From: an uncultured Gammaproteobacteria bacterium
GTDB taxonomy: Bacteria; Patescibacteriota; Patescibacteriia; Veblenbacterales; UBA10138
Length of the DNA: 64,000 nucleotides
Direction of reading: 5' to 3'
Assembly: GCA_964453605.1 (NCBI GenBank)
Contig: CAYVOI010000001.1
Coordinates: 102,276-166,275 of the forward strand
In this document: positions 1,903 to 17,442 of the stretch, piece by piece
Layout: the number at the start of each line of letters is the position of its first letter
Position numbering within the stretch: the first letter of the stretch is position 1
Translations under genes and position numbers: made by a program
Notes under the pieces: model-generated
What the model was told of the DNA's origin: nothing
The model's database searches: none
What the model saw: only the letters and a program-made list of their open reading frames with translations

Positions 1903-2595
1903 ATGGCAAAAAAAGGTAAAGCCAAACCCAAGAAACCAAAGGCCGGTCCGCCCACCAGCTCGTACCTCGAGATTGCTGAAATTCACGATAACTGCGTGGT
2001 CATGAAAGACGGCACGCTCAGGGCCCTGTTCTTGTGCTCGTCGGTGAACTTTGCCCTGAAGAGCGAGGACGAGCAGAACGCCACCATTCAGGCCTACGTG
2101 AGCTTTTTGAACTCACTCGATGCCCCGCTCCAAATTGTGGTGCAATCGCGCAAGCTTAACATCGACGGCTACCTCAGTAAGCTCGAAGCTATGGAGAAGA
2201 GCCAGGTGAACGAGCTCCTGCGAGTGCAAACCTCGGAGTACCTGGCCTACATTCGTGAGCTCATTAGCTTAGGCGACATCATGACCAAGCGGTTCTACGT
2301 CGTCGTGACCTACGACCACCGGTCAGACAAGCGCCGTAGCTTCTGGCGCCGCTTGCTCTCTGTTTTCACGGCGGCAGCCAGCATCAAACTGTCGCGCGAC
2401 GAGTTTGCCCGCTACGCCGAGGCGCTGGAGCGCCGCGCCGGCTACATCGTGTCTGGCCTGACCTCCATGGGCCTCAAAGTTGCCAGGCTCGACACCCAAG
2501 GCCTGATAGAGCTCTACTACACTACCTACAACCCCGAGCTTAGGGAGCGCCAGAAGCTGGTTGAGCTCGACAAGCTCCAGGTAGGTGCCAGCTAA
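1903..2595 (+). CDS. VirB4/TrbE N-terminal domain, encoded as a separate ORF (split gene or frameshift)
   Basis: The motif VVMKDGTLRALFLCSSVNFALKSEDEQ matches the conserved start of VirB4-family ATPases (vl.kDGsl.a.f.l.G.dfe..sdee). The ORF stops at TAA 2593-2595, overlapping the next ORF's start at 2585 in the +1 frame. Confidence 0.55.
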   Translation: MAKKGKAKPKKPKAGPPTSSYLEIAEIHDNCVVMKDGTLRALFLCSSVNFALKSEDEQNATIQAYVSFLNSLDAPLQIVVQSRKLNIDGYLSKLEAMEKSQVNELLRVQTSEYLAYIRELISLGDIMTKRFYVVVTYDHRSDKRRSFWRRLLSVFTAAASIKLSRDEFARYAEALERRAGYIVSGLTSMGLKVARLDTQGLIELYYTTYNPELRERQKLVELDKLQVGAS

Positions 2596-4483
2596 GCGTA
2601 CCGTACGTATGGCCATTACTGCCCGACAAGCTAGCGCTGAGCTGCAGCGTCCGGTGAGCACCCTGCCCCAGCCGGAAGAGCTTCCGCCCGCCAGCGAAAA
2701 AGAACTGCTGGAGGCCGAGCGCCTGCTCCGCGAAGGTTCGGTCAGGGTTCGTGATATCATCGCCCCCGCCAGCTTAAAGGTTACCCCCGATCACCTTGAG
2801 CTCAATGGGCTCTGGCTCCGGACGCTCTTCGTTATGACCTACCCCCGTTACATTTCGGTGGGCTGGTTTGCGCCCATTATCAACCTCAACGCCACCTTAG
2901 ACGTCAGTATGTTCTTCTACATGGTACCGTCGGAGATAATTTTGAAGCAGCTCAGGAACCGGGTGGGTGGCATTGAGGCGCAAATTGTAGCCGACCACGA
3001 AAAGGGTGCCCCCCGTGACCCTATTCGCGAAACCGCGCTTCGTGACATCGAGCAGCTCAGGGATTCGCTCACCCAGGGCACCGAGCGCTTTTTCCAGGTG
3101 GCCCTCTACGTCACGCTCTACGCTAAGGACAAGACCGAGCTCGACAAGCTGACGGAGGAGGTGGAGTCTATCTTCGGCTCCAAGCTGGTGTACTCCCGCC
3201 GGGCGCTCTGGCAAACTGAACAAGGGTTCAACTCCACGCTACCGCAAGCCACCGACGACCTGCAGATCTACTTCAACATGAACACCAGCCCGGCGGCTTC
3301 GAGCTTCCCCTTTATTTCCTCCGAGCTCACCTCGGACAGCGGCATTCTCTACGGCATCAACCGGCACAACAACTCACTCATTCTGTTTGACCGTTTTAGC
3401 TTGCAGAACGCCAACATGAGCGTGTTCGCCACGAGTGGCGCCGGTAAGAGCTACGCTGTGAAGCTCGAGGTGCTCAGGAGCCTCATGATGGGGACCGACG
3501 TTATCATCATCGACCCTGAAATGGAGTACAAGCACCTCAGTGAGGCGGTCGGAGGTGCTTACGTTAACATCTCGTTGAATTCAGAGTCTAAGATAAATCC
3601 GTTTGACCTGCCGCGACCAGTGGGTGACGTGAACACTGGTGACATTATCCGCTCGGCTGTGATAACCCTGAAAGGCCTGATGCGCTTAATGCTCGGGAGC
3701 TTAACCCACGTAGAGGATTCGCTTATCGACCGGGCACTCCTTGAAACCTACGCCAAGAAAGACATTACCCCGGCATCGGACCTCTCTAAAGTTGAAGCGC
3801 CGGTGATGGCCGACTTCCAGGAAGTGTTAGGTGGTATGCAGGGCGGTGAAGATTTGGCGCTCCGTTTGAAAAAGTACACCGAGGGTACGTTCGCTGGCCT
3901 CTTCAACAGCCCTACGAATGTTGACGTCAAAAACCAGTTGGTGGTGTTCTCAGTCAGGGACTTGGAAGATGAGCTCAGGCCCATCGCTATCTACACCATT
4001 GTGAACTACATTTGGAACGTGGTGCGGAGTGAGCTCAAGAAACGCTTACTCGTTATTGATGAGGCGTGGTGGCTGATGCAGAACGAGGACAGCGCTAAGT
4101 TCATTTTCGCGCTCGTGAAGCGCTGCCGTAAGTACTACCTCGGGGTGACCACCATTACGCAAGACGTTAACGACTTCTTAACCAGCCCTTATGGCCAGGC
4201 TATTGTGAACAACTCGGCGTTGCAGCTCTTGCTCAAGCAGTCACCCGCTGGCATAGACCTGGTGGTAAAAACGTTCCTCCTCACCGAGGGCGAAAAGTAC
4301 TTGCTCCTCGAGTGCGGCGTAGGTGAGGGCATTTTCTTTGCCGGCTCCAAGCACGCGGCTATTAAGGTGGTGGCCTCCTACACCGAGGACCAGCTCATAA
4401 CGAGCGACCCCCGGCAGCTCCTCGAAATTGAACAGGCCAAGAAAGAGTTTGAGGCCAGCCTCAAAGAACCGGACATTGGTTAA
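2585..4483 (+). CDS. virB4: VirB4/TrbE/CagE-family type IV secretion ATPase (core and C-terminal part)
   Basis: Walker A FATSGAGKSYAVK and Walker B LLVIDEAWWLM, where DEAW is the VirB4 hallmark. Also IIIDPEMEY and TITQDVNDF. With the upstream fragment the total is about 860 aa, typical for VirB4. Confidence 0.85.
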   Translation: MPAKRTVRMAITARQASAELQRPVSTLPQPEELPPASEKELLEAERLLREGSVRVRDIIAPASLKVTPDHLELNGLWLRTLFVMTYPRYISVGWFAPIINLNATLDVSMFFYMVPSEIILKQLRNRVGGIEAQIVADHEKGAPRDPIRETALRDIEQLRDSLTQGTERFFQVALYVTLYAKDKTELDKLTEEVESIFGSKLVYSRRALWQTEQGFNSTLPQATDDLQIYFNMNTSPAASSFPFISSELTSDSGILYGINRHNNSLILFDRFSLQNANMSVFATSGAGKSYAVKLEVLRSLMMGTDVIIIDPEMEYKHLSEAVGGAYVNISLNSESKINPFDLPRPVGDVNTGDIIRSAVITLKGLMRLMLGSLTHVEDSLIDRALLETYAKKDITPASDLSKVEAPVMADFQEVLGGMQGGEDLALRLKKYTEGTFAGLFNSPTNVDVKNQLVVFSVRDLEDELRPIAIYTIVNYIWNVVRSELKKRLLVIDEAWWLMQNEDSAKFIFALVKRCRKYYLGVTTITQDVNDFLTSPYGQAIVNNSALQLLLKQSPAGIDLVVKTFLLTEGEKYLLLECGVGEGIFFAGSKHAAIKVVASYTEDQLITSDPRQLLEIEQAKKEFEASLKEPDIG

Positions 4484-4503: not shown

Positions 4504-5064
4504 ATGTGGCGAAAGATAGTGCCCCTAGCCGTTGGTGTACTCGTGGTGGCCGCGGCCGCCTGGTACTGGTTTGTGTACCTGGCGCCTGCTCCGGTGCAGC
4601 CTACAAATCCAGGCACAGCCAGCCAGGCCGTGAACCAACCAGGCCCTACACCTAGTACTAACCAGCCAGCCCAGGTTCAACCCGAACCGGTTGATCCAAC
4701 CTTAGGGTGGCGTGTGCTAGCTCAGAACTTTGCTGAGCGCTACGGCAGCTACTCTACCGATCTGCCGTTCCAGAACCTTAAGACCTTGAGCTCGCTGGTC
4801 ACACCCGCCTTTCAAGAACGTCTCAGCGCTCAGGTGGCAGGCGGTTCCACGGGCCCAGGGTTTTACAGCGTAACTACGCGAGCACTCATGGCAGAGAACC
4901 AAGCAGGTGGTACTGAGGGTATGACGGTAAACGTTTCCACCCAGCGCAGCGAACGCTTTAGCCGTGACGGTGCACCGCAGGTTTCGTACGCTGTGCTCCA
5001 GGTAGAGCTCAAACAGGTCAGCGGTACCTGGTTGGTAGATTCAGCTGCTTGGCAGAAGAAGTAA
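4504..5064 (+). CDS. bitopic membrane protein with Pro/Gln-rich linker and small C-terminal beta-rich domain (possibly VirB8-like, NTF2-like)
   Basis: N-terminal TM helix IVPLAVGVLVVAAAAWYWFVYL. The C-terminal domain is about 110 aa and ends YAVLQVELKQVSGTWLVDSAAW. Its position after VirB4 fits a VirB8 analogue. The assignment is by architecture only. Confidence 0.35.
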   Translation: MWRKIVPLAVGVLVVAAAAWYWFVYLAPAPVQPTNPGTASQAVNQPGPTPSTNQPAQVQPEPVDPTLGWRVLAQNFAERYGSYSTDLPFQNLKTLSSLVTPAFQERLSAQVAGGSTGPGFYSVTTRALMAENQAGGTEGMTVNVSTQRSERFSRDGAPQVSYAVLQVELKQVSGTWLVDSAAWQKK

Positions 5065-5127: not shown

Positions 5128-5397
5128 ATGCAGAGCTACCGAAGTCTTGAGCGTCTGGTGAGAGGGTTCGCCAGTCATCGTCGAATTGAGATTATGGTGC
5201 TGCTGGGACGTGGGCTGGCGCTTACGGTGTTCGATGTGGCCGATAGGCTACGTATCAATTTTCGTACTGCCTCGGAACACCTGCGCCGTTTGTACACCGC
5301 CGGATTAGTCGGCAAGCGTAATCGTGGCGCGGCGGTAGAACATACGCTCACCGAGCAGGGGAGAGTTATTCTAAAGTTCCTAAGAACATTGGAATAA
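5128..5397 (+). CDS. ArsR/SmtB-type winged-helix transcriptional regulator
   Basis: 89 aa. HRRIEIMVLLGRGLALTVFDVADRLRINFRTASEHLRRLYTAGLV matches the ArsR HTH pattern (H..R..IL..L...E..V.EL.......S.HL..L...G.V). Confidence 0.6.
   Translation: MQSYRSLERLVRGFASHRRIEIMVLLGRGLALTVFDVADRLRINFRTASEHLRRLYTAGLVGKRNRGAAVEHTLTEQGRVILKFLRTLE
5368..5397. promoter_or_regulatory. operator-like repeat copy 2 (26/30 identical to copy 1) at the 3' end of the regulator gene, 16 bp upstream of the next ORF
   Basis: ATTCTAAAGTTCCTAAGAACATTGGAATAA. It encodes the regulator C-terminus and its stop codon, and immediately precedes the ATG at 5413. Confidence 0.45.
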
Positions 5398-5412: not shown

Positions 5413-5940
5413 ATGGCTGAGCAGGTACAAGCAGACACAACTGAAGACCTGGTTGAGCAAGCGCCGGCAGAGAGCGTTGAGCAACGTAATGAGCGTGAGC
5501 TCACGGAAACCCGCGCTAAGGCCAGCGTATTAGAGCGCGCACTTAAACTTGAGACAACGGGCGTCGACTCGCTCGACCAAGCAGCTAATAAAACTTCGCA
5601 GCAGTGGCTTGATGACACCAAGCTGGCGCTGCTGCCGCTGTTCTACCTCTACCTGCCGCTCTTGGCCATTTTTGTGATAGTCGTGATTGAGCTCATGCTA
5701 CCACTGTGGCGCAGCTCGTGGACTCTCCCTCTCTGGCGCAAGGTGGTGTACTGGGTCTACATTGTACTGTTTGTATTCCTGACCATAACAATCCTCGGGG
5801 CCCTGGCCTACCTCTACAAGCACCCCGACAAGTTTTGCACCTTGGTGTTGGACGGTACGTGGTGGGGGGCCGTGCCTGGGGTTAAGCAGGCCGGGTGCAG
5901 TGTTTTTGGTTGGTTGTTCAATTTGTTCAAGCCCGGCTAG
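5413..5940 (+). CDS. membrane protein: acidic N-terminal region plus three or four TM helices
   Basis: Acidic or coiled N-terminus, then LALLPLFYLYLPLLAIFVIVVIELMLPLW and VVYWVYIVLFVFLTITILGALAYLY. No known motif. Confidence 0.45.
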   Translation: MAEQVQADTTEDLVEQAPAESVEQRNERELTETRAKASVLERALKLETTGVDSLDQAANKTSQQWLDDTKLALLPLFYLYLPLLAIFVIVVIELMLPLWRSSWTLPLWRKVVYWVYIVLFVFLTITILGALAYLYKHPDKFCTLVLDGTWWGAVPGVKQAGCSVFGWLFNLFKPG

Positions 5941-5972: not shown

Positions 5973-7262
5973 ATGAGGCAACGTTTGAGCGCAGCTGTGG
6001 TCGGTAGCATAGCCCTGGGGCTGTTCTCGGCAGCACTCTTAGCACCAGCGCCGGCTGGCGCCGTTTCATGCCAGTGTTTTGAGGCAGCAGCAGATACCCA
6101 GAGTAACGTTGCGGTACCTATTAATGGTGGTAACCCCTACTGTGCCCAGGTTACCTCGATTACTGATTGTAGTCCGAAACATTTCGGTTTGCAGTCACAG
6201 CGGATTGAATCCACTAGCGATTTTGGCTTTGGTACTACCTATACGACCTCCTGTCTTAGCTACCGCGATAATGCCTGCAAAATACTGGTGGGGAGCGTCG
6301 CTGACCCCCGTTCAATATTCAACCCCTGTTGGACCAAAGACCAGTGCCAGGCTGCGGATGGTGATTTTGATGACAGTGGCAAAGACTCTCCGAGCTGTGA
6401 ACCGTTTGCGGGTCAGCCAACGGCCCGGTGCTTTGTGAAACCACCACTCATTAAACTGCAAATCCCTATCCCTGGGCTGGGGGACACGGTTCAGGGCGGG
6501 TTCCCTGAGTACCTAGCCGCGTTCTATAAGTTTTTTGTGGCTCTTCTCGCCGTAGCTTCTGTAGTCATGGTGATGTGGGGTGGGTTCAAGCGCATTATGG
6601 CCGTAGGCAGCCCGGAAAAAATAAAAGACGCCAACGACGCCATAGCCGGTGCTATCACCGGTTTGGTTCTCGTGCTCATTTCTTACTCACTGCTGGCGCT
6701 CCTTAACCCACGGCTGGTTACCTCTACCAGGCTTACCTTGGACAAGGTAAAAACGCAACTGTTCGGTAACTGGTGCCCCGCTACTGACCCGACAAACAAA
6801 AACATACAGTACCAGTGTGGCGATAAGGCTACCATAGAGGGTCAAGCCTGTGTGGGGAGCGCGTGTCCCATAAGCGGTACGGGCTGCTACAAGGTGAGTG
6901 ATTCCGGGGGAGTTGATAGTACGGGCCGCTTTACTGACTACCAGTGCTTAACGCCAGAAGACGCTTGCAATAGCGTACTACGAGGTACGGCGCTGAGAAT
7001 TCATGGTGCCAAAGATAACTATAGCGGCTACCAGGCGGTTTGCAGCAGCTTTAACCGCTCTATCGCAGGTCAGCAGTATTTGTGTCTATGGCAAGGTGGG
7101 GCGGAAAAATGCCAGTGGTATACACCTGCCAATATCGCGCAGGTGTGTGCTGATCATTCAGGTTGCTCGGCATTCAGTGCCGGTGGTAATTTGAAGGGTT
7201 TTTGTACATTTGATTTGTGTAATCGGGGCTGTAAGATTGATGGAGCTGCTTGTAAACCCTAG
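5973..7262 (+). CDS. secreted cysteine-rich protein with a central VirB2/TrbC-like hydrophobic hairpin module (paralog 1)
   Basis: Signal peptide MRQRLSAAVVGSIALGLFSAALLAPAPAGA. About 30 Cys residues flank a 65-aa module YKFFVALLAVASVVMVMWGGFKRIMAVGSPEKIKDANDAIAGAITGLVLVLISYSLLALLNPRL. This module is shared with the ORF at 9247. Confidence 0.55.
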   Translation: MRQRLSAAVVGSIALGLFSAALLAPAPAGAVSCQCFEAAADTQSNVAVPINGGNPYCAQVTSITDCSPKHFGLQSQRIESTSDFGFGTTYTTSCLSYRDNACKILVGSVADPRSIFNPCWTKDQCQAADGDFDDSGKDSPSCEPFAGQPTARCFVKPPLIKLQIPIPGLGDTVQGGFPEYLAAFYKFFVALLAVASVVMVMWGGFKRIMAVGSPEKIKDANDAIAGAITGLVLVLISYSLLALLNPRLVTSTRLTLDKVKTQLFGNWCPATDPTNKNIQYQCGDKATIEGQACVGSACPISGTGCYKVSDSGGVDSTGRFTDYQCLTPEDACNSVLRGTALRIHGAKDNYSGYQAVCSSFNRSIAGQQYLCLWQGGAEKCQWYTPANIAQVCADHSGCSAFSAGGNLKGFCTFDLCNRGCKIDGAACKP

Positions 7263-7265
7263 TCT

Positions 7266-8516
7266 ATGTTCGCAAACCTTGATCGCAAGAAAGTCTTGTT
7301 GGTAGCTGGCGTAGCGCTGGCGGTAGCAGTTCTGGTTTGGCTGGTGCTTAGGCTCTTAGCTAAACCACAACCCCCGCAGCCGCCCGTGAACCAGAACCTC
7401 AACCGCCCGGTGAACTTTCCGGTTGGTGTGAACGGCAACCTGAACGTTAGCCCAATCGGTGGCACCAACTTGCCGCTCGCTAACGGTAATGTGAATGTAC
7501 CTGGTGGACCTGGCGGTAGCCCGGTAGCTAGCGGCGGGCCTACGGCTACGGCGGCTATTACCTCCGGCCCGGCGCTGGCCCCCACCGCTGGCGCGGCTGG
7601 CTCCGTACGCTACTACAACCCCACCGATGGTAAGTTCTACGAACTTCTGGGCGGTACCGCGCATACCTTGAGCGACGCTTCGTACCCTGAGGCACAAAAC
7701 ATTACCTGGTCGCCACAGAAGAGCAGTGCTATTCTAGAGTTTCCCGATGGCGCTAAGGTGCTGTACGATTTTGACAAACACAAGCAGTTCACCTTACCCA
7801 AAGAAATGACCGAGTTTTCCTTTGCACCCGACGGACAGAAAATCGCTGGTAAGTACCTGGGTACCAACCCAGCTAACAACTGGATAACAACGGTGAACCC
7901 CGACGGCTCCGGCCTTACCGGGGTTGAGCCGATGGGAGAGAACGCCGACAAGGTGGAGGTAGCTTGGTCGCCCAATAACCAGGTGGTTGCCCTGTCGCGC
8001 ACCGGCGACCCGGCGGGCTTGTTCCAGCAGAACGTGCTCCTCATAGGGTTCCACGGCGAGAACTTTCGGCAGCTGACGGTCGACGGGCGTGGCTTTGACG
8101 CCCGCTGGACGCCCGATGGTAATCGGCTGCTGTACTCGGTTTACAGCGACACCACCAACTACCAGCCCACTCTCTACCTGGCCGATGCCAGTGCCGACCG
8201 CGTGGGGGCCAACAAGCAGGCGCTCCAGCTTAATACCTGGGTGGATAAGTGCACAGTTGAGGGCGGTGTGGCGTACTGTGCTGTGCCAACACAGCTGCCC
8301 CAGGGTGCCGCGTTCAGCCGCGAGCTAGCAGCCGGCACGCCCGATTACATTTACCGCATAGACCTGGCCACTGGCGGTACTACCTTGGTGGCTCAGCCGC
8401 TGGGGCAAAACGGTGCTGGGCTCACCGCCAGTAACCTGACCGTGGCTGGCGATGGCAGTATGCTCTACTTTACCGATAGCCAGGGAACCTTGCGGAGCGT
8501 GAAGCTAAAGCCGTAG
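7266..8516 (+). CDS. membrane-anchored TolB-like beta-propeller (PD40/WD40-like repeats) protein
   Basis: N-terminal TM anchor and a Pro/Asn-rich linker. Repeated units of the form W(S/T)PDG...(L/I)...: ITWSPQKSSAILEF, FSFAPDGQKIAGKY, VAWSPNNQVVALSR, ARWTPDGNRLLYSV. Confidence 0.55.
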   Translation: MFANLDRKKVLLVAGVALAVAVLVWLVLRLLAKPQPPQPPVNQNLNRPVNFPVGVNGNLNVSPIGGTNLPLANGNVNVPGGPGGSPVASGGPTATAAITSGPALAPTAGAAGSVRYYNPTDGKFYELLGGTAHTLSDASYPEAQNITWSPQKSSAILEFPDGAKVLYDFDKHKQFTLPKEMTEFSFAPDGQKIAGKYLGTNPANNWITTVNPDGSGLTGVEPMGENADKVEVAWSPNNQVVALSRTGDPAGLFQQNVLLIGFHGENFRQLTVDGRGFDARWTPDGNRLLYSVYSDTTNYQPTLYLADASADRVGANKQALQLNTWVDKCTVEGGVAYCAVPTQLPQGAAFSRELAAGTPDYIYRIDLATGGTTLVAQPLGQNGAGLTASNLTVAGDGSMLYFTDSQGTLRSVKLKP

Positions 8517-8579: not shown

Positions 8580-9227
8580 ATGGTGACTACCAGCTCTATG
8601 CTCCGCGTAATGCTGCTCGGTGTTGCGGTGGTGCTAGTGGTGGCGGTGTGGCAGCTCCGCCGAGAGAGTGCTCGCCTGAGCTACCAGCCAGCGCCGAGCG
8701 AGCAGGCTCAGCCCACCAAGCTGCCATCGCAAGTTACCGTTCTGCCGGCTGACCCGGTGCGGGGGGCGGCCACTGCACCACAAACGGTAGTGCTGTTTAG
8801 CGATTTCCAGTGTCCCTACTGTGCTGAGGTGGCACCCATCCTGGCTCAGGCCGTGGCCCAGAACGGTGGCAGGTGGAAGCTGGTGTGGAAAGACTTTCCT
8901 CTGCCCTCACACCCCGAGGCTCTGGCGGCGGCGGAGGCGGCCCAGTGCGCTGGTAGCCAAGGTCGGTTTTGGGAATACCACGACCAGCTGTTCCAGCGGC
9001 AAGCTACGCTCGGGCCCCAGCTCTACCAAGCTCTGGCGCTTGAGTTGAACCTCAGCCCCGAGCCATTCCAGCGCTGTCTGGCGCAGCACACCTTTAAGCC
9101 GTTCATTGAACACAGCCTGGCTGAGGGCGCAGCTATTGGCGTTGATGCCACTCCTTTTTTGGTGGTAGGTAGCAAGGTCTACCGTGGTACGTTTACGGCC
9201 GAGGAGCTAGCCCAGTTTTTGGAGTAA
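8580..9227 (+). CDS. DsbA-family thiol:disulfide oxidoreductase (thioredoxin fold, CPYC active site), membrane-anchored
   Basis: TM anchor MLLGVAVVLVVAVW. Active-site block VVLFSDFQCPYCAEVAP. C-terminal ATPFLVVGSKVYRGTFTAEELAQFL, typical of DsbA/DsbG-like proteins. Confidence 0.7.
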   Translation: MVTTSSMLRVMLLGVAVVLVVAVWQLRRESARLSYQPAPSEQAQPTKLPSQVTVLPADPVRGAATAPQTVVLFSDFQCPYCAEVAPILAQAVAQNGGRWKLVWKDFPLPSHPEALAAAEAAQCAGSQGRFWEYHDQLFQRQATLGPQLYQALALELNLSPEPFQRCLAQHTFKPFIEHSLAEGAAIGVDATPFLVVGSKVYRGTFTAEELAQFLE

Positions 9228-9246: not shown

Positions 9247-10431
9247 ATGCAGGCTAACGTAAAGTTACTGGTTGCTCGCAGCGTCCTCTGTGTAGCCGCA
9301 CTGGGGTGGAGCGTGGCACCGTTGCTCCCGGTGTGGGCGGCTGTGCCCTGTTCACCTAAAGACGTGTGGCAGGTAAACGATTGTACGGGGATTACGTGCT
9401 GTGATGTCGGCTACGTTTGCCGAGCGCAGGATTATAAAAACGGCCGGGAGGGGACATTGTCGCAGCATATCTGTGAAGTGGCCCCACCAGCGGAACAAGA
9501 AGGTAGCAGCTCGGCCACTACCCCCCTGGAGTTCCAGCCCCAGGTAACCATCCCCGGTACCATTACCGTGGGGGGGCAGCAGGTTTCGTTCCGGCAAGGG
9601 CAGGGACTTGCCGTGACGGGTGATACCATTGCGCAGTACCTCGGGGTGTTCTATAAGTTTTTCATAGCCATGCTGGCCGTGGCCGCAGTTGTTATGGTGA
9701 TGTGGGGCGGGTTCAAGCGCATTATGGCGGTAGGTTCCCCGGAGAAGATTGCTGACGCTAACGATGCTATTGTCAGTGCCCTTACTGGTTTAGTGCTGGT
9801 GCTTATTTCCTATTCGCTCCTCAACCTCATTAACCCTAAGCTGACGAGCTTTAAAACCTTAGCCCTGACACCGGTGACGAGGATAGAGTTTGAAGATGTA
9901 GAGGCAGAGCAGATTGTAGCAGCGGCCACCCAGCCTAGCAGCGTGCCGCAGGTGGCTATTATCAGCGGCGCTAACATCAGCAACCCGGGTAACAAAATAG
10001 CCACCCTCCCGCTCATTACTGCCCTACAAGCTGCCGCGGCTGAGTTAGCTAAGCAGAACGTGTATGTGATTGTGACCTCTGGTACCAGAACAGTCGCCGA
10101 GCAAACCGCGCTCATCTTGAAGAACTGTATAAATCCACCAGGGTCTACTAGCTGCCATCCTAAACCCGGCGGGGTGGAGACGTGTCCACTGCCGGGGAAC
10201 AACCCCTTAAGCTGTCCCCACACCTCGGGCCAAGCGGTGGACGTGTGGGCGGCGCAGGGCAACAGCACGCCGATTTCGCAAAAGGCCTGCCAGGCTAATA
10301 AGCCCGCCTGCGAGCAAGACCCGGCCATGGCCGCACTCATTGCGGCTATGCGAGCACAGGGGTTTTGTAAGCTCGACAGCGAACCCTGGCACTTTGAACA
10401 GCCAGTGGTGTCGGCTGGCCGTTGTCACTAA
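9247..10431 (+). CDS. secreted cysteine-rich VirB2/TrbC-like hairpin protein fused to a C-terminal LAS/peptidase M15 (VanY-like zinc D,D- or L,D-peptidase) domain (paralog 2)
   Basis: Signal peptide. Module YKFFIAMLAVAAVVMVMWGGFKRIMAVGSPEKIADANDAIVSALTGLVLVLISYSLLNLINPKL. All three M15 signature blocks are present: SGTRTVAEQ (SGxRxxxxQ), HTSGQAVD (HxxxxxxD zinc ligands) and EPWHFE (EPWHF). Confidence 0.6.
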   Translation: MQANVKLLVARSVLCVAALGWSVAPLLPVWAAVPCSPKDVWQVNDCTGITCCDVGYVCRAQDYKNGREGTLSQHICEVAPPAEQEGSSSATTPLEFQPQVTIPGTITVGGQQVSFRQGQGLAVTGDTIAQYLGVFYKFFIAMLAVAAVVMVMWGGFKRIMAVGSPEKIADANDAIVSALTGLVLVLISYSLLNLINPKLTSFKTLALTPVTRIEFEDVEAEQIVAAATQPSSVPQVAIISGANISNPGNKIATLPLITALQAAAAELAKQNVYVIVTSGTRTVAEQTALILKNCINPPGSTSCHPKPGGVETCPLPGNNPLSCPHTSGQAVDVWAAQGNSTPISQKACQANKPACEQDPAMAALIAAMRAQGFCKLDSEPWHFEQPVVSAGRCH

Positions 10432-15199: not shown

Positions 15200-15284
15200 C
15201 CCGTCCCGATAGGGGGTCAGGGGTTCTGGTGTAGTATTAATTAGTCCGAACGCATTTCGCCGTCGCAGGCGGCAAAGAGTTTCC

Positions 15285-15322
15285 CCCGCGAAAATTCGGA
15301 AAGGCGGCGGACCGCGCCGCTA
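15285..15322 (-). terminator. GC-rich hairpin plus T-run downstream of the low-GC islet gene (minus strand)
   Basis: Stem GCGGCG...CGCCGC, followed on the minus strand by TTTCCGAATTTT. Confidence 0.35.
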
Positions 15323-15363
15323 ACAATTTCAAGTTTTTCTTTGGTGGCATTAAATTATGAAAT

Positions 15364-16077
15364 TTATGTTAAATCAAAATCAATCAAAATCTTTTTTTCC
15401 ATATCATAAAATGAACGCGCAAAAAGATTATCCTGTTTGTTGGAAAAAGTTTTTTTGGCTAGTAAATCATTTCTATAAGTGTAAATTAGAGAACTTATCG
15501 GTGCACCGGGGTAGCAAATCAATCGCCAACCATTATCAGAAGCTAGGGTGTGTGGTAATGGTATTTCTTTTTGCGTAAGTAAATGAGTTACAACAATTTC
15601 TTCAATCAAAAAATTTATGTTAGTATCGGAGGTTTCTCTCCCCTGATTTTTAAGATCACTTTGCAAACACATATTAAAATGCTTATCATTTTTTGCCGCC
15701 CCAAGTAATTTATTTTTTCTTTCATGGAAGTTATCAGCGTTCAGAATTGCATAGTCCCAGGGCAAAAAGTGAAAAGCTTGTGGGACATATTTTCTTTCTT
15801 TGAGTAAGAGGTTCGTAAATTCTCCTTTATGGCCCAACATTTGATTCAAAGAGCGTTTGCGAATCTCGACTGCCCTGTCATCGCTATTCAAATAAAGATC
15901 GTTTGTATAAAGAAAAATACAGTCTATCGAAATATATTTCACTTTGCTCTCGAAAAATACCAAGAAATCATAAATATCCTGACCAGATTGAGAGTTGGCC
16001 AGTCTGCTCATAGAAAGTGGGAAAATCAAATAACCGTCTTTGGGAACACTAGAAATGTCAAAATTGTCCTTCTTCAT
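15364..16077 (-). CDS. hypothetical protein in a low-GC (about 33%) islet; motif pattern reminiscent of XYP-subfamily cyclodipeptide synthases (tentative)
   Basis: 237 aa and AT-rich, in strong contrast to the flanks. The ordered motifs are LIFPLSMSRLANSQS near the N-terminus (compare the CDPS G-I-S-x-x-N-S pocket), NFLIEEI at about residue 156-160 (compare Y-x-x-x-E), and RLICYPGAP at about 186-192 (compare LCYH in the NYH subfamily and YP in the XYP subfamily). Matching size and spacing cannot be confirmed without a search. Confidence 0.5.
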   Translation of the reverse strand: MKKDNFDISSVPKDGYLIFPLSMSRLANSQSGQDIYDFLVFFESKVKYISIDCIFLYTNDLYLNSDDRAVEIRKRSLNQMLGHKGEFTNLLLKERKYVPQAFHFLPWDYAILNADNFHERKNKLLGAAKNDKHFNMCLQSDLKNQGRETSDTNINFLIEEIVVTHLLTQKEIPLPHTLASDNGWRLICYPGAPISSLIYTYRNDLLAKKTFSNKQDNLFARSFYDMEKKILIDFDLT

Positions 16078-16125
16078 AATATGATTAAAAAATTTTCTGG
16101 CCCCAACTCTTTGAGTTTTCCTTTC

Positions 16126-16200
16126 TGGTGCCCTCGGTAGGAATCGAACCTACATTACAAGCTCCGCAAGCTCGCGTTCTATCCATTGAACTACGAGGGC
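16126..16200 (-). tRNA. tRNA-Arg (anticodon GCG)
   Basis: Reverse complement GCCCTCG-TA-GTTC-AATGGATA-GAAC-G-CGAGC-TTGCGGA-GCTTG-TAAT-GTAGG-TTCGATT-CCTAC-CGAGGGC-A-CCA. It is a clean cloverleaf with the CCA encoded. Anticodon loop TTGCGGA. Confidence 0.8.
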
Positions 16201-16863: not shown

Positions 16864-17442
16864 ATGGAGATAACCACTTACCTCAGGGAGCTCCGCCGTA
16901 CCTACCAAGCCACTGCCCAAGCTCGGCGGAAGCTGGTGGACCTTTCGGCGCAAGCTCAGCACCTCAGCAAGCAAGCTATTTTTACTGCCCAGCGCGGTGA
17001 GCTTAAGCAGGCTCAGGAGTTGCTAGCGGCGGCCGTAGCGCTGCTCAAGCAAGGCCAAGCCCTTTGCCGCCAGGTCGGCGAACTTGAGTACTTAGGTAGC
17101 TACCGTGCTGCGCTTGAAGAGTTTGTGGAAGCAGATCTCTTTACCACCTACCTCAAGCGCGGGGGAGTGGGGCGTGTATCAAAAGTGAAGGTGGCACCGG
17201 AGGTGTACCTCGGTGGGTTGTCAGATATGCTCGGCGAACTGGTGCGCTACGCTGTAAAACTTGCTACTGAGGGCAAACCTACTGAGGTGGACAAGCTAGC
17301 TAAATTCGTAACGCAGGTGGTGGGGGAGCTGGCGGCTATGAACCTCACGGGCAGCCTGCGGAACAAGTTCGACCAGGCCAAGCAGCACCTGCGGCGGCTG
17401 GAGGACATCCGCTACGACTTGAGCATCCGTCGCCATGCCTAA
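16864..17442 (+). CDS. translin-family protein
   Basis: All-helical, 192 aa. The C-terminus SLRNKFDQAKQHLRRLEDIRYDLSIRR aligns with the translin C-terminal signature SLRKRYDGLKYDVKKVEEVVYDLSIRG. The upstream YLGGLSDMLGELVRYAV aligns with YLEGAIHAANELSRLAV. Confidence 0.6.
   Translation: MEITTYLRELRRTYQATAQARRKLVDLSAQAQHLSKQAIFTAQRGELKQAQELLAAAVALLKQGQALCRQVGELEYLGSYRAALEEFVEADLFTTYLKRGGVGRVSKVKVAPEVYLGGLSDMLGELVRYAVKLATEGKPTEVDKLAKFVTQVVGELAAMNLTGSLRNKFDQAKQHLRRLEDIRYDLSIRRHA

Follow-up and report, generated by a model that had tools for sequence, protein, structure and literature searches.

Patescibacteria are known to encode chromosomal, relaxase-less type IV secretion systems (T4SSs) that resemble the mating-pair formation class FATA (MPF-FATA) and possess VirB2-like pilins (PMC12102498, PMC10633639, PMC12857230). 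Such pilins were found near virB4 in 1,135 Patescibacteria assemblies (PMC12102498), and the pilin set is essential in Ca. Southlakia epibionticum ML1 (PMC10633639). In the published cases, the pilin genes are organised in tandem or near-tandem arrays of 2-11 genes, with a mean identity of 25% and a maximum of 54% (PMC10633639, PMC12102498). In the one species tested, epibiotic growth requires the T4SS, whose function was described as completely unknown (PMC11665869), and, according to the main survey, the putative Patescibacteria pilus seems able to do without a VirB1 homologue (PMC12102498). Here, we analysed a stretch of 64,000 nucleotides (nt), hereafter the window, from contig CAYVOI010000001.1 (assembly GCA_964453605.1, GTDB order Veblenbacterales, close to Veblenbacteria and Kerfeldbacteria), in which a T4SS locus carries two genes, called A and B, whose proteins share a two-helix hairpin module. 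It is highly probable that this module is a VirB2/TrbC-type pilin hairpin (PF18895) of a chromosomal Patescibacteria T4SS and, taken jointly with it, that the C-terminal domain of B is an M15 peptidase.

The locus is comparable to the Patescibacteria pilins described in S. epibionticum ML1 and to the TM7x array in its Pfam family, its phylum, its placement with PrgI/VirB3, TrsD and VirB4, its relaxase-less chromosomal context and the presence of more than one paralogue. It differs from those arrays by encoding two proteins of ~400 amino acids (aa), whose mid-protein hairpins are flanked on either side by large ectodomains, disulfide-rich or enzymatic, are 83% identical and evolve in concert, and by the PD40 and DsbA genes lying between them. 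Since the module falls in a family that is already curated and published, the core finding in itself brings nothing new. In a limited literature search, however, no description was found of a pilin-hydrolase fusion or of concerted evolution of VirB2 in the candidate phyla radiation; within that scope, the doubly decorated hydrolase fusion, the slot with its exchangeable enzymes and the concerted evolution confined to the hairpin, all reported below, seem to be undescribed. The two genes and their parts are as follows.

5973-7262, + strand: gene A (429 aa), encoding a signal peptide, a Cys-rich ectodomain, the hairpin and a second Cys-rich ectodomain
5973-6062, + strand: Sec signal peptide of A as predicted from sequence (aa 1-30), hydrophobic at aa 5-23, then A-x-A, with cleavage between APAGA and VSC
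6063-6500, + strand: N-terminal Cys-rich ectodomain of A (aa 31-176, 10 Cys), ending in the conserved LQIPIPG
6510-6707, + strand: hairpin module copy A (aa 180-245), from YLAAFYKFF to LLNPRL, with a PF18895 match and AlphaFold2 helices
6711-7259, + strand: C-terminal Cys-rich ectodomain of A (aa 247-429, 16 Cys), its cysteines invariant across 22 homologues
9247-10431, + strand: gene B (394 aa), encoding a signal peptide, a small Cys-rich ectodomain, the hairpin, a flexible linker and an M15 peptidase
9637-9834, + strand: hairpin module copy B (aa 131-196), from YLGVFYKFF to LINPKL, with a PF18895 match (28.6 bits) and AlphaFold2 helices
9952-10428, + strand: LAS/M15 (VanY/VanX/Ply500-like) zinc peptidase domain of B (aa 236-394), recognised by profile, Foldseek and invariant residues

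The assignment of the hairpin to the pilins comes from PF18895 (T4SS_pilin), for which A (30.0 bits), B (28.6 bits) and the module alone (34.1 bits) all exceed the gathering threshold of 26.6 bits. The same family was matched by 31/31 diverse relatives tested and by 103 of the closest 106 representative proteins, among which 8 also match PF04956, the TrbC/VirB2/TraA family. As an example, one hairpin repeat of the relative P0105 passes both PF18895 and PF04956 (51 bits vs 27.9). A profile check against TrbC/VirB2, as proposed by an earlier model-made annotation (the sequence-only reading), returned no PF04956 match at E <= 0.1 for A, B or the isolated modules, this family being reached through relatives only. 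In addition, NF045849, which describes the Mbov_0395 family of the integrative and conjugative elements of Mycoplasma, covers the whole hairpin below its threshold (E 2e-7 for B and 4e-5 for A, 23-31 bits vs a cutoff of 40); this family is VirB2-like too, belongs to an MPF-FATA T4SS of wall-less/monoderm bacteria, and its model of 80 positions is hairpin-sized. The pilins of the F, RP4 and Ti systems (PF04956) share with A and B a cleavable leader and two hydrophobic helices joined by a basic or polar loop, and their profile overlaps via the relatives. In contrast to a small propilin of about 100-150 aa made of a leader and a hairpin, A and B reach 429 and 394 aa, i.e., 3-4 times longer. Moreover, whereas TrbC/VirB2 pilins of this kind serve diderm T4SSs, the window host is monoderm-like with an MPF-FATA-type VirB4, and cyclisation or acetylation has no evidence here. 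The sequence-only reading had taken the module for the structural or assembly core of, for example, a pilin, with the decorated domains varying around it; this view is supported by PF18895 together with the VirB4-linked locus, while its alternative of a pore subunit found no support. Rather than a common segment free of T4SS association, the module is a PF18895 member lying beside VirB4, PrgI/VirB3 and TrsD-like genes.

Both open reading frames (ORFs) are real and lie on the + strand, and outside the module they are indeed divergent: BLASTP of A against B returned one significant segment (A 170-264 and B 125-215, 67% identity, E 4e-37), the rest of the comparison staying at E > 1. The near-identity previously noticed over 65 aa holds, but the figure of ~75% given for it was too low, since 54 of the 65 residues (83%) are identical without any gap; the ungapped core, from YL..FYKFF to NPxL, counts 55/66 identical residues (A nt 6510-6707, B nt 9637-9834). 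The interval 6525-6720 proposed for the first copy is in frame, whereas the one proposed for the second (9655-9850) begins one codon late, the matching start being 9652. The predicted organisation in two hydrophobic helices with a K/R/D/E-rich polar turn was borne out by hydropathy and AlphaFold2. Indeed, the polar turn of copy A is GGFKRIMAVGSPEKIKDANDAI, and hydropathy peaks of 2.3 flank GGFKRIMAVGSPEKI on either side. In the AlphaFold2 models of both proteins, which were built on family alignments, the helices span residues 177-209 and 214-243 in A and 125-160 and 165-195 in B, with a predicted local distance difference test (pLDDT) of 73-85 over the hairpin and the turn at VGSP, within GGFKRIMAVGSPEKIxDANDAI.

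At the nucleotide level, the two window copies are 74-75% identical. They differ at 51 nt, 36 of which are third codon positions, and different codons are used at 30 of the 55 residues that are identical between the modules, which together indicate that the similarity is old and kept at the protein level. The A and B hairpins of the window are thus best read, from their codons, as an old duplicate under strong purifying selection. A recent duplication, a recent gene conversion and an assembly artefact were ruled out for the window by the 75% nt identity and by a synonymous-codon identity at background level. A six-frame search of the 64-kb window with all filters off, which covers 64 kb of a genome of ~876 kb, retrieved no further copy of the module and no small undecorated pilin. 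The 175-aa protein with two transmembrane (TM) segments encoded directly upstream of A (5413-5940) was considered as a third copy and rejected, as it reaches just E 0.045 with PF18895 and is matched neither by the family-specific nor by the broad hairpin hidden Markov models.

Comparison between genomes showed that the hairpins evolve in concert. In the seven genomes with both genes, the A-B hairpin identity within a genome (76-94%) is above every cross-genome A-B value (7/7 rows), and equals or exceeds most of the orthologous comparisons. Similarly, when 79 loci were compared, the nearest relative was in the same locus for 41 of the 92 hairpins that belong to multi-hairpin loci. This highest likeness within genomes contradicts a plain divergence since an ancient duplication, by which A hairpins would be closer to A than to any B. 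The clearest case is L008 (Ca. Veblenbacteria metagenome-assembled genome (MAG), JBBIVB010000002.1), in which a tract of ~190 nt (approximately L008:5640-5835 and L008:8355-8550) is shared by A and B at 98% nt identity (2-3 mismatches), with the same synonymous codons at 56/57 positions. The edges of this tract are sharp, at FYKFF and NP, and its flanks are unalignable, so that L008 displays a recent gene conversion limited to the hairpin. The A/B nt identity of the hairpin then decreases from L006 (92%) and L058 (90%) to L010 and L002 (83%), L004 (80%) and the window (75%). In the window, the synonymous-codon identity (0.40) falls within the between-genome range (0.36-0.47), meaning that these sites are saturated. 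Taken together, the sequences show that hairpin-restricted conversion is recurrent in the family and that in the window the last event is old, purifying selection alone being able to explain the 83%. The fixed conversions imply that A and B hairpins are functionally interchangeable, which is consistent with A and B using a common site or assembly, without proving so.

The decorated form of the hairpin extends far beyond the window. A profile of the two window modules, compared with 1.84 billion representatives, retrieved 14,009 clusters at E <= 1e-3, of which 1,327 remained at E <= 1e-10 and 25 at E <= 1e-30. The 178 closest proteins comprise 156 with a single hairpin and 22 with 2-8 tandem hairpins. 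The single-hairpin relatives have median extensions of 110 aa on the N-terminal and 207 aa on the C-terminal side, with a median of 6, 0 and 12 Cys in the N-extension, hairpin and C-extension, respectively. The decorated form is therefore the rule within the neighbourhood of this module in the PF18895 family. In several tandem proteins, an SLT domain comes after three or four hairpins, and 3-8 tandem PF18895 hairpins per chain, some then followed by SLT, were observed in P0105, P0085, P0126, P0061, P0076 and P0086. These tandem arrays of 2-8 hairpins show that the hairpins are built to pack side by side. A classical pilus lattice, made of one subunit, does not easily accommodate several hairpins in a single chain. 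All these relatives belong to Patescibacteria (Veblen-, Kerfeld-, Uhr-, Magasanik-, Moran-, Falkow-, Komeili- and Buchananbacteria), Saccharibacteria being represented by the known arrays of small pilins only.

Protein A was previously called from 5997 in public gene predictions, giving 421 aa, and an identical protein is found in NCBI/Logan (P0027). Its orthologues display 36-55% identity with conserved cysteines; C119, C125, C142, C153 and the I-P-G motif are invariant in 22 homologues. The description of the module as embedded between Cys-rich domains fully applies to A, with 10 Cys before, 16 after and 0 inside the hairpin, and in part to B, with 6 Cys before it and an M15 domain containing 8 Cys after it. 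The ectodomains of A are modelled with good pLDDT (about 75-88 for the N-terminal one and 80-95 for the C-terminal one) and have no significant match in PDB, BFVD or Pfam. They would thus be disulfide-rich domains without a known fold, possibly having a binding function.

In contrast to A, protein B (identical to P0001 in NCBI/Logan) carries an enzyme after its hairpin, from which it is separated by a low-confidence linker of ~35 residues. Its Cys-rich character after the hairpin, which the sequence-only reading had described, is correct as to the cysteines (8) and incomplete as to the domain, which is a peptidoglycan peptidase. B itself stays below the Pfam cutoffs (VanY 15.5 bits for a cutoff of 25, Peptidase_M15 17.9 for a cutoff of 27), and its orthologues carry precomputed PF02557 hits. 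The profile of the 17-member B family, compared with PDB, retrieved VanX 1r44 (E 2e-6), then Ply500 2vo9 (L-Ala-D-Glu peptidase), VanY 5zhf/5hnm and YodJ/LdcB. Residues 240-394 are modelled at pLDDT > 90, and the top 15 Foldseek matches are all LAS/M15 proteins with a probability of 0.97-1.00 (Ply500 2vo9, VanX 1r44, LysB4 6akv, LdcB 4jid, VanY 5hnm and ChiX). The residues SxxR281...Q286, H325-x6-D332 (within CPHTSGQAVD) and W381-H382-F383-E384 are invariant in 17/17 B homologues. The invariant M15 motifs, together with the profile and fold matches, identify the C-terminal domain of B as an intact zinc peptidoglycan peptidase, which would cut the peptide stems of peptidoglycan. It has the same fold and the same SxxR...Q, H-x6-D and EPWH motifs as the other LAS/M15 peptidases (VanX 1r44, VanY 5hnm/5zhf, LdcB 4jid/4ox3, Ply500 2vo9, LysB4 6akv), and differs from them in its location behind a pilin hairpin, its 8 Cys and a Cys-containing insert (NPPGS..C..KPG..C). 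B is also comparable to PrgK (pCF10), TraG (pIP501), CwlT (ICEBs1) and TcpG (pCW3), functional VirB1 analogues that are likewise wall hydrolases of T4SS loci, tethered to the membrane, facing outward, presumably opening the wall for their machine and variable in their catalytic domains. However, these proteins rely on an ordinary N-terminal TM segment or lipobox and typically on SLT, muramidase, CHAP or NlpC/P60 domains, whereas B combines a pilin-type hairpin tether with M15, and possesses no SLT/GH23 lytic transglycosylase domain of the VirB1 type.

The enzyme of B is one of several that occupy the same position. In the related loci examined, RadA is immediately preceded, at a distance of 6-57 nt, by a gene that invariably encodes this hairpin, with a C-terminal domain that varies as follows.

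M15/VanY: window and about 40 loci
VanY of a different subtype: L060
Peptidase_M15_4: L065
3D: L037, P0019
SLT: L055
Phage_lysozyme (GH24): L057
Peptidase_M23: L059
Peptidase_C39_2: L003
NlpC/P60: L004
Glucosaminidase, sub-threshold: L064

In L005, the C-terminal domain of the slot protein (P0053) matches SLT weakly (14.9 bits, E 0.019). Among the 106 closest representatives, roughly one fifth carry a hydrolase domain (SLT in 10, SLT_2 in 2, VanY/M15 in 7, 3D in 2, and C39_2, Amidase_5 and NlpC/P60 in 1 each). The presence of differing hydrolase families in one slot indicates that peptidoglycan cleavage itself is conserved, the choice of target bond being flexible. Polymorphic toxins, too, are typified by an unvarying N-terminal region whose catalytic C-terminus is exchanged at one locus, as here with at least 8 hydrolase families, and Patescibacteria epibionts must breach the wall of their host (PMC11665869). 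The B-slot proteins could accordingly be interbacterial toxins, whose C-terminal hydrolase would be released and delivered by the T4SS so as to lyse or weaken the host bacterium, the hairpin and the N-terminal region acting as the trafficking part. We regard this as very improbable. Indeed, RadA directly follows the hydrolase (6-57 nt downstream in related loci, overlapping the end of B in the window) and no immunity-like small gene was found after it, which down-weights a polymorphic toxin with its immunity gene; no recognisable cleavage or release motif separates the hairpin from the enzyme; and a Sec signal peptide combined with a two-TM hairpin is what one expects of a protein that stays in the membrane, not of a substrate translocated by the T4SS.

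The genes surrounding A and B are those of a T4SS locus, listed here in their order along the window.

15-1379: proline-rich ORF of 454 aa upstream of PrgI, with no family match
1383-1826, + strand: PrgI/VirB3-like T4SS membrane protein (PF12666, E 5e-9, above threshold)
1903-2595, + strand: TrsD-like protein resembling the N-terminal part of VirB4 (sub-threshold NF041427 TrsD, E 1e-6, and NF045975, E 3e-8; PF11130 weakly)
2585-4483, + strand: VirB4-family T4SS ATPase (NF045971, CD1110 family, 351 bits vs a cutoff of 325; PF19044, E 3e-28)
4504-5064, + strand: single-pass membrane protein of 186 aa, directly after VirB4, as also in 23 related loci
5128-5397, + strand: ArsR-family helix-turn-helix regulator, between the 186-aa and 175-aa membrane proteins
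5413-5940, + strand: two-TM protein of 175 aa, directly upstream of gene A
7266-8516, + strand: membrane-anchored PD40/TolB-like beta-propeller with an N-terminal TM segment (PF07676; TIGR02800 weakly)
8580-9227, + strand: membrane-anchored DsbA-like thiol-disulfide oxidoreductase with an N-terminal TM segment and CPYC at aa 78 (PF13462, E 8e-25; PF01323, E 4e-14)

VirB4 ends 1.5 kb upstream of A, and the genes from PrgI to B form one same-strand run that is conserved in L002, L005, L006, L008 and L010. The full order (PrgI, TrsD-like, VirB4, the 186-aa protein, in some cases the 175-aa protein, A, PD40, DsbA, B and RadA) recurs in L002 and L005, with proteins only ~50% identical. Downstream of B, the genes are housekeeping ones, namely RadA (overlapping the end of gene B), a methylpurine glycosylase and RecG. 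Across the 82 related loci, the neighbours are PD40 (50), DsbA (46), RadA (42), the M15 domain (40) and VirB4 (30, counted within the fetched flank of each locus); the DsbA gene, where present (46/82), always lies between the PD40 gene and the hairpin-hydrolase gene. The wider conservation of PD40, DsbA, hydrolase and RadA (50, 46, 40 and 42 of 82 loci) compared to VirB4 adjacency (30/82), together with the fact that membrane-anchored wall hydrolases are common in monoderm bacteria, could point to a generic envelope module, in which the hairpin would be a mere two-pass anchor, PD40-DsbA-hydrolase a unit of wall maintenance or division, and the vicinity of the T4SS incidental. This explanation nevertheless seems quite unlikely, as a simple anchor needs neither 83% identity beside an unalignable rest nor hairpin-restricted gene conversion, the enzyme-less A has the same hairpin, the order from PrgI to B is preserved across genera, and the hairpin belongs to PF18895, a family tied to virB4 across Patescibacteria (PMC12102498).

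Each of the two proteins A and B has a predicted Sec signal peptide, and we infer that both flanking domains are outside and the K/R turn cytoplasmic. Indeed, N-termini resembling signal peptides, K/R residues located at the turn and the conservation of a DsbA gene together argue for termini outside, a loop inside and oxidised ectodomains. The numbers of Cys are even in all ectodomains (10 and 16 in A, 6 and 8 in B) and null in the hairpins, and the oxidation of these cysteines probably falls to the DsbA-like enzyme, whose gene lies between A and B. The interpretation that we moderately favour is that the hairpin acts as a VirB2-type docking or assembly element joining A and B to the same T4SS site, B being the wall opener. 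The hairpin would be the constant and interchangeable part, docking A and B, either hairpin to hairpin or onto the same T4SS partner, at the VirB3/VirB4 machine. Such a docking would bring a surface domain and the enzyme that opens the wall to the site of secretion, and B would become a functional analogue of VirB1 tethered by a pilin hairpin. Both hairpins would then stay near-identical because both must fit the same site, through purifying selection and, in relatives, episodic conversion.

A stronger version is a true decorated pilus, in which A and B polymerise, possibly with pilins encoded elsewhere, into a VirB2-type filament boring through the host wall. The module does belong to a pilin family, proteins with tandem hairpins exist, a shared lattice would favour the homogenisation of hairpins by gene conversion, and a small undecorated pilin gene is present neither in the 64-kb window nor in the orthologous loci, each of which has two hairpins. 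In the F- and T-pilus structures, both termini of a VirB2-type hairpin are on the outer side, so that the N- and C-terminal domains would face outward, which also counts for a decorated pilus. Still, this reading has only a small chance of being right, given that no pilus was observed in Patescibacteria, that ~340 ectodomain residues per subunit represent a steric load, and that the window covers 64 kb of the ~876-kb genome, so that a major pilin may lie elsewhere. Its more specific form, with A and B as co-polymerising subunits of an enzyme-decorated T4SS pilus exposing hydrolases and disulfide-rich binding domains on its surface or tip, is equally to be regarded as unlikely. If it were true, such a filament would be the device by which epibionts pierce the host cell wall, lineages would swap the hydrolase cassette to suit the wall chemistry of their host, and conversion would keep one lattice compatible.

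Several observations weigh against a pilin-type hairpin working at the T4SS, and have to be set beside the docking interpretation. The PF18895 margins are small for the full-length proteins (30.0 and 28.6 vs 26.6 bits), and PF04956 is matched by neither window protein. The module profile compared with PDB sequences retrieved no solved pilin, just a chance match to the photosystem II protein PsbZ (E 0.59), and Foldseek placed the conjugation pilus of Aeropyrum pernix (8dfu) at E 1.5, which is not significant, a two-helix hairpin being too simple to discriminate. Many loci with 8 kb of upstream flank, including several from Uhrbacteria and Magasanikbacteria, contain PD40-DsbA-hydrolase-RadA without VirB4 nearby, which indicates that the physical linkage to the T4SS is frequent and not obligatory. 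In addition, the peptidase activity, the topology and the disulfides are all inferred, and a helical lattice of the VirB2 type would, by our rough estimate, become crowded if each 7-kDa hairpin bore two ectodomains of 15-20 kDa. To our knowledge, no pilus has been seen for any Patescibacteria T4SS. Likewise, a 2025 review speaks only of a 'potential to elaborate conjugative pili' (PMC12857230).

Our results suggest where the missing wall-opening activity is to be found in Veblen-, Kerfeld-, Uhr-, Magasanikbacteria and relatives, i.e., fused to a pilin-type hairpin in an exchangeable slot. We take all these lineages to be members of the GTDB class ABY1. Moreover, a conversion limited to the hairpin between differently decorated paralogues offers a testable handle on the assembly of the machine. 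The practical gain is modest, consisting of a better annotation of many proteins labelled 'hypothetical' or 'D-alanyl-D-alanine carboxypeptidase' and of a set of predicted secreted, disulfide-stabilised wall hydrolases from uncultivated bacteria.

Some features of the locus and the window are of secondary interest. At the position of the proline-rich ORF (15-1379), related loci encode unannotated proteins of 392-651 aa and up to 976 aa (L005, L002), and such proteins upstream of PrgI may represent the VirB6/VirB8-like components that are otherwise missing. In the window, the VirB4 function is divided between two genes, the TrsD-like one (1903-2595) overlapping the start of the VirB4 gene (2585) by 11 nt, a layout reported to be typical of Patescibacteria (PMC12102498). 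The orthologue of the TrsD-like protein in L002 is annotated PF26593 (TraC-like). The 186-aa protein has no family match. By tblastn, the ArsR-type gene was recovered solely in L001, a copy of this very locus, the other related loci giving no match; it could thus regulate the T4SS locus in a lineage-specific manner. In L004 (2400-4800), AbiEii/nucleotidyltransferase toxin-antitoxin-like genes are inserted between the A gene and the PD40 gene, which shows that the locus tolerates insertions between the two hairpin genes. Many third-party annotation (TPA) MAGs titled 'uncultured Gammaproteobacteria bacterium' carry a Patescibacteria-type locus (L006, L009, L012, L013, L018, L024 and others), and these labels look like mislabelling. 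Farther downstream, the guanine-cytosine content falls to ~0.49 at 15200-16200, compared to a window mean of ~0.54, around a minus-strand ORF of 237 aa (15364-16077); this ORF has no Pfam match, lies between RecG and the serine hydroxymethyltransferase (SHMT) block, and recurs in the Logan contig L001. Finally, the ORF at 16864-17442 clearly matches the Translin family (PF01997, E 2e-22), which is mainly known from eukaryotes and archaea.

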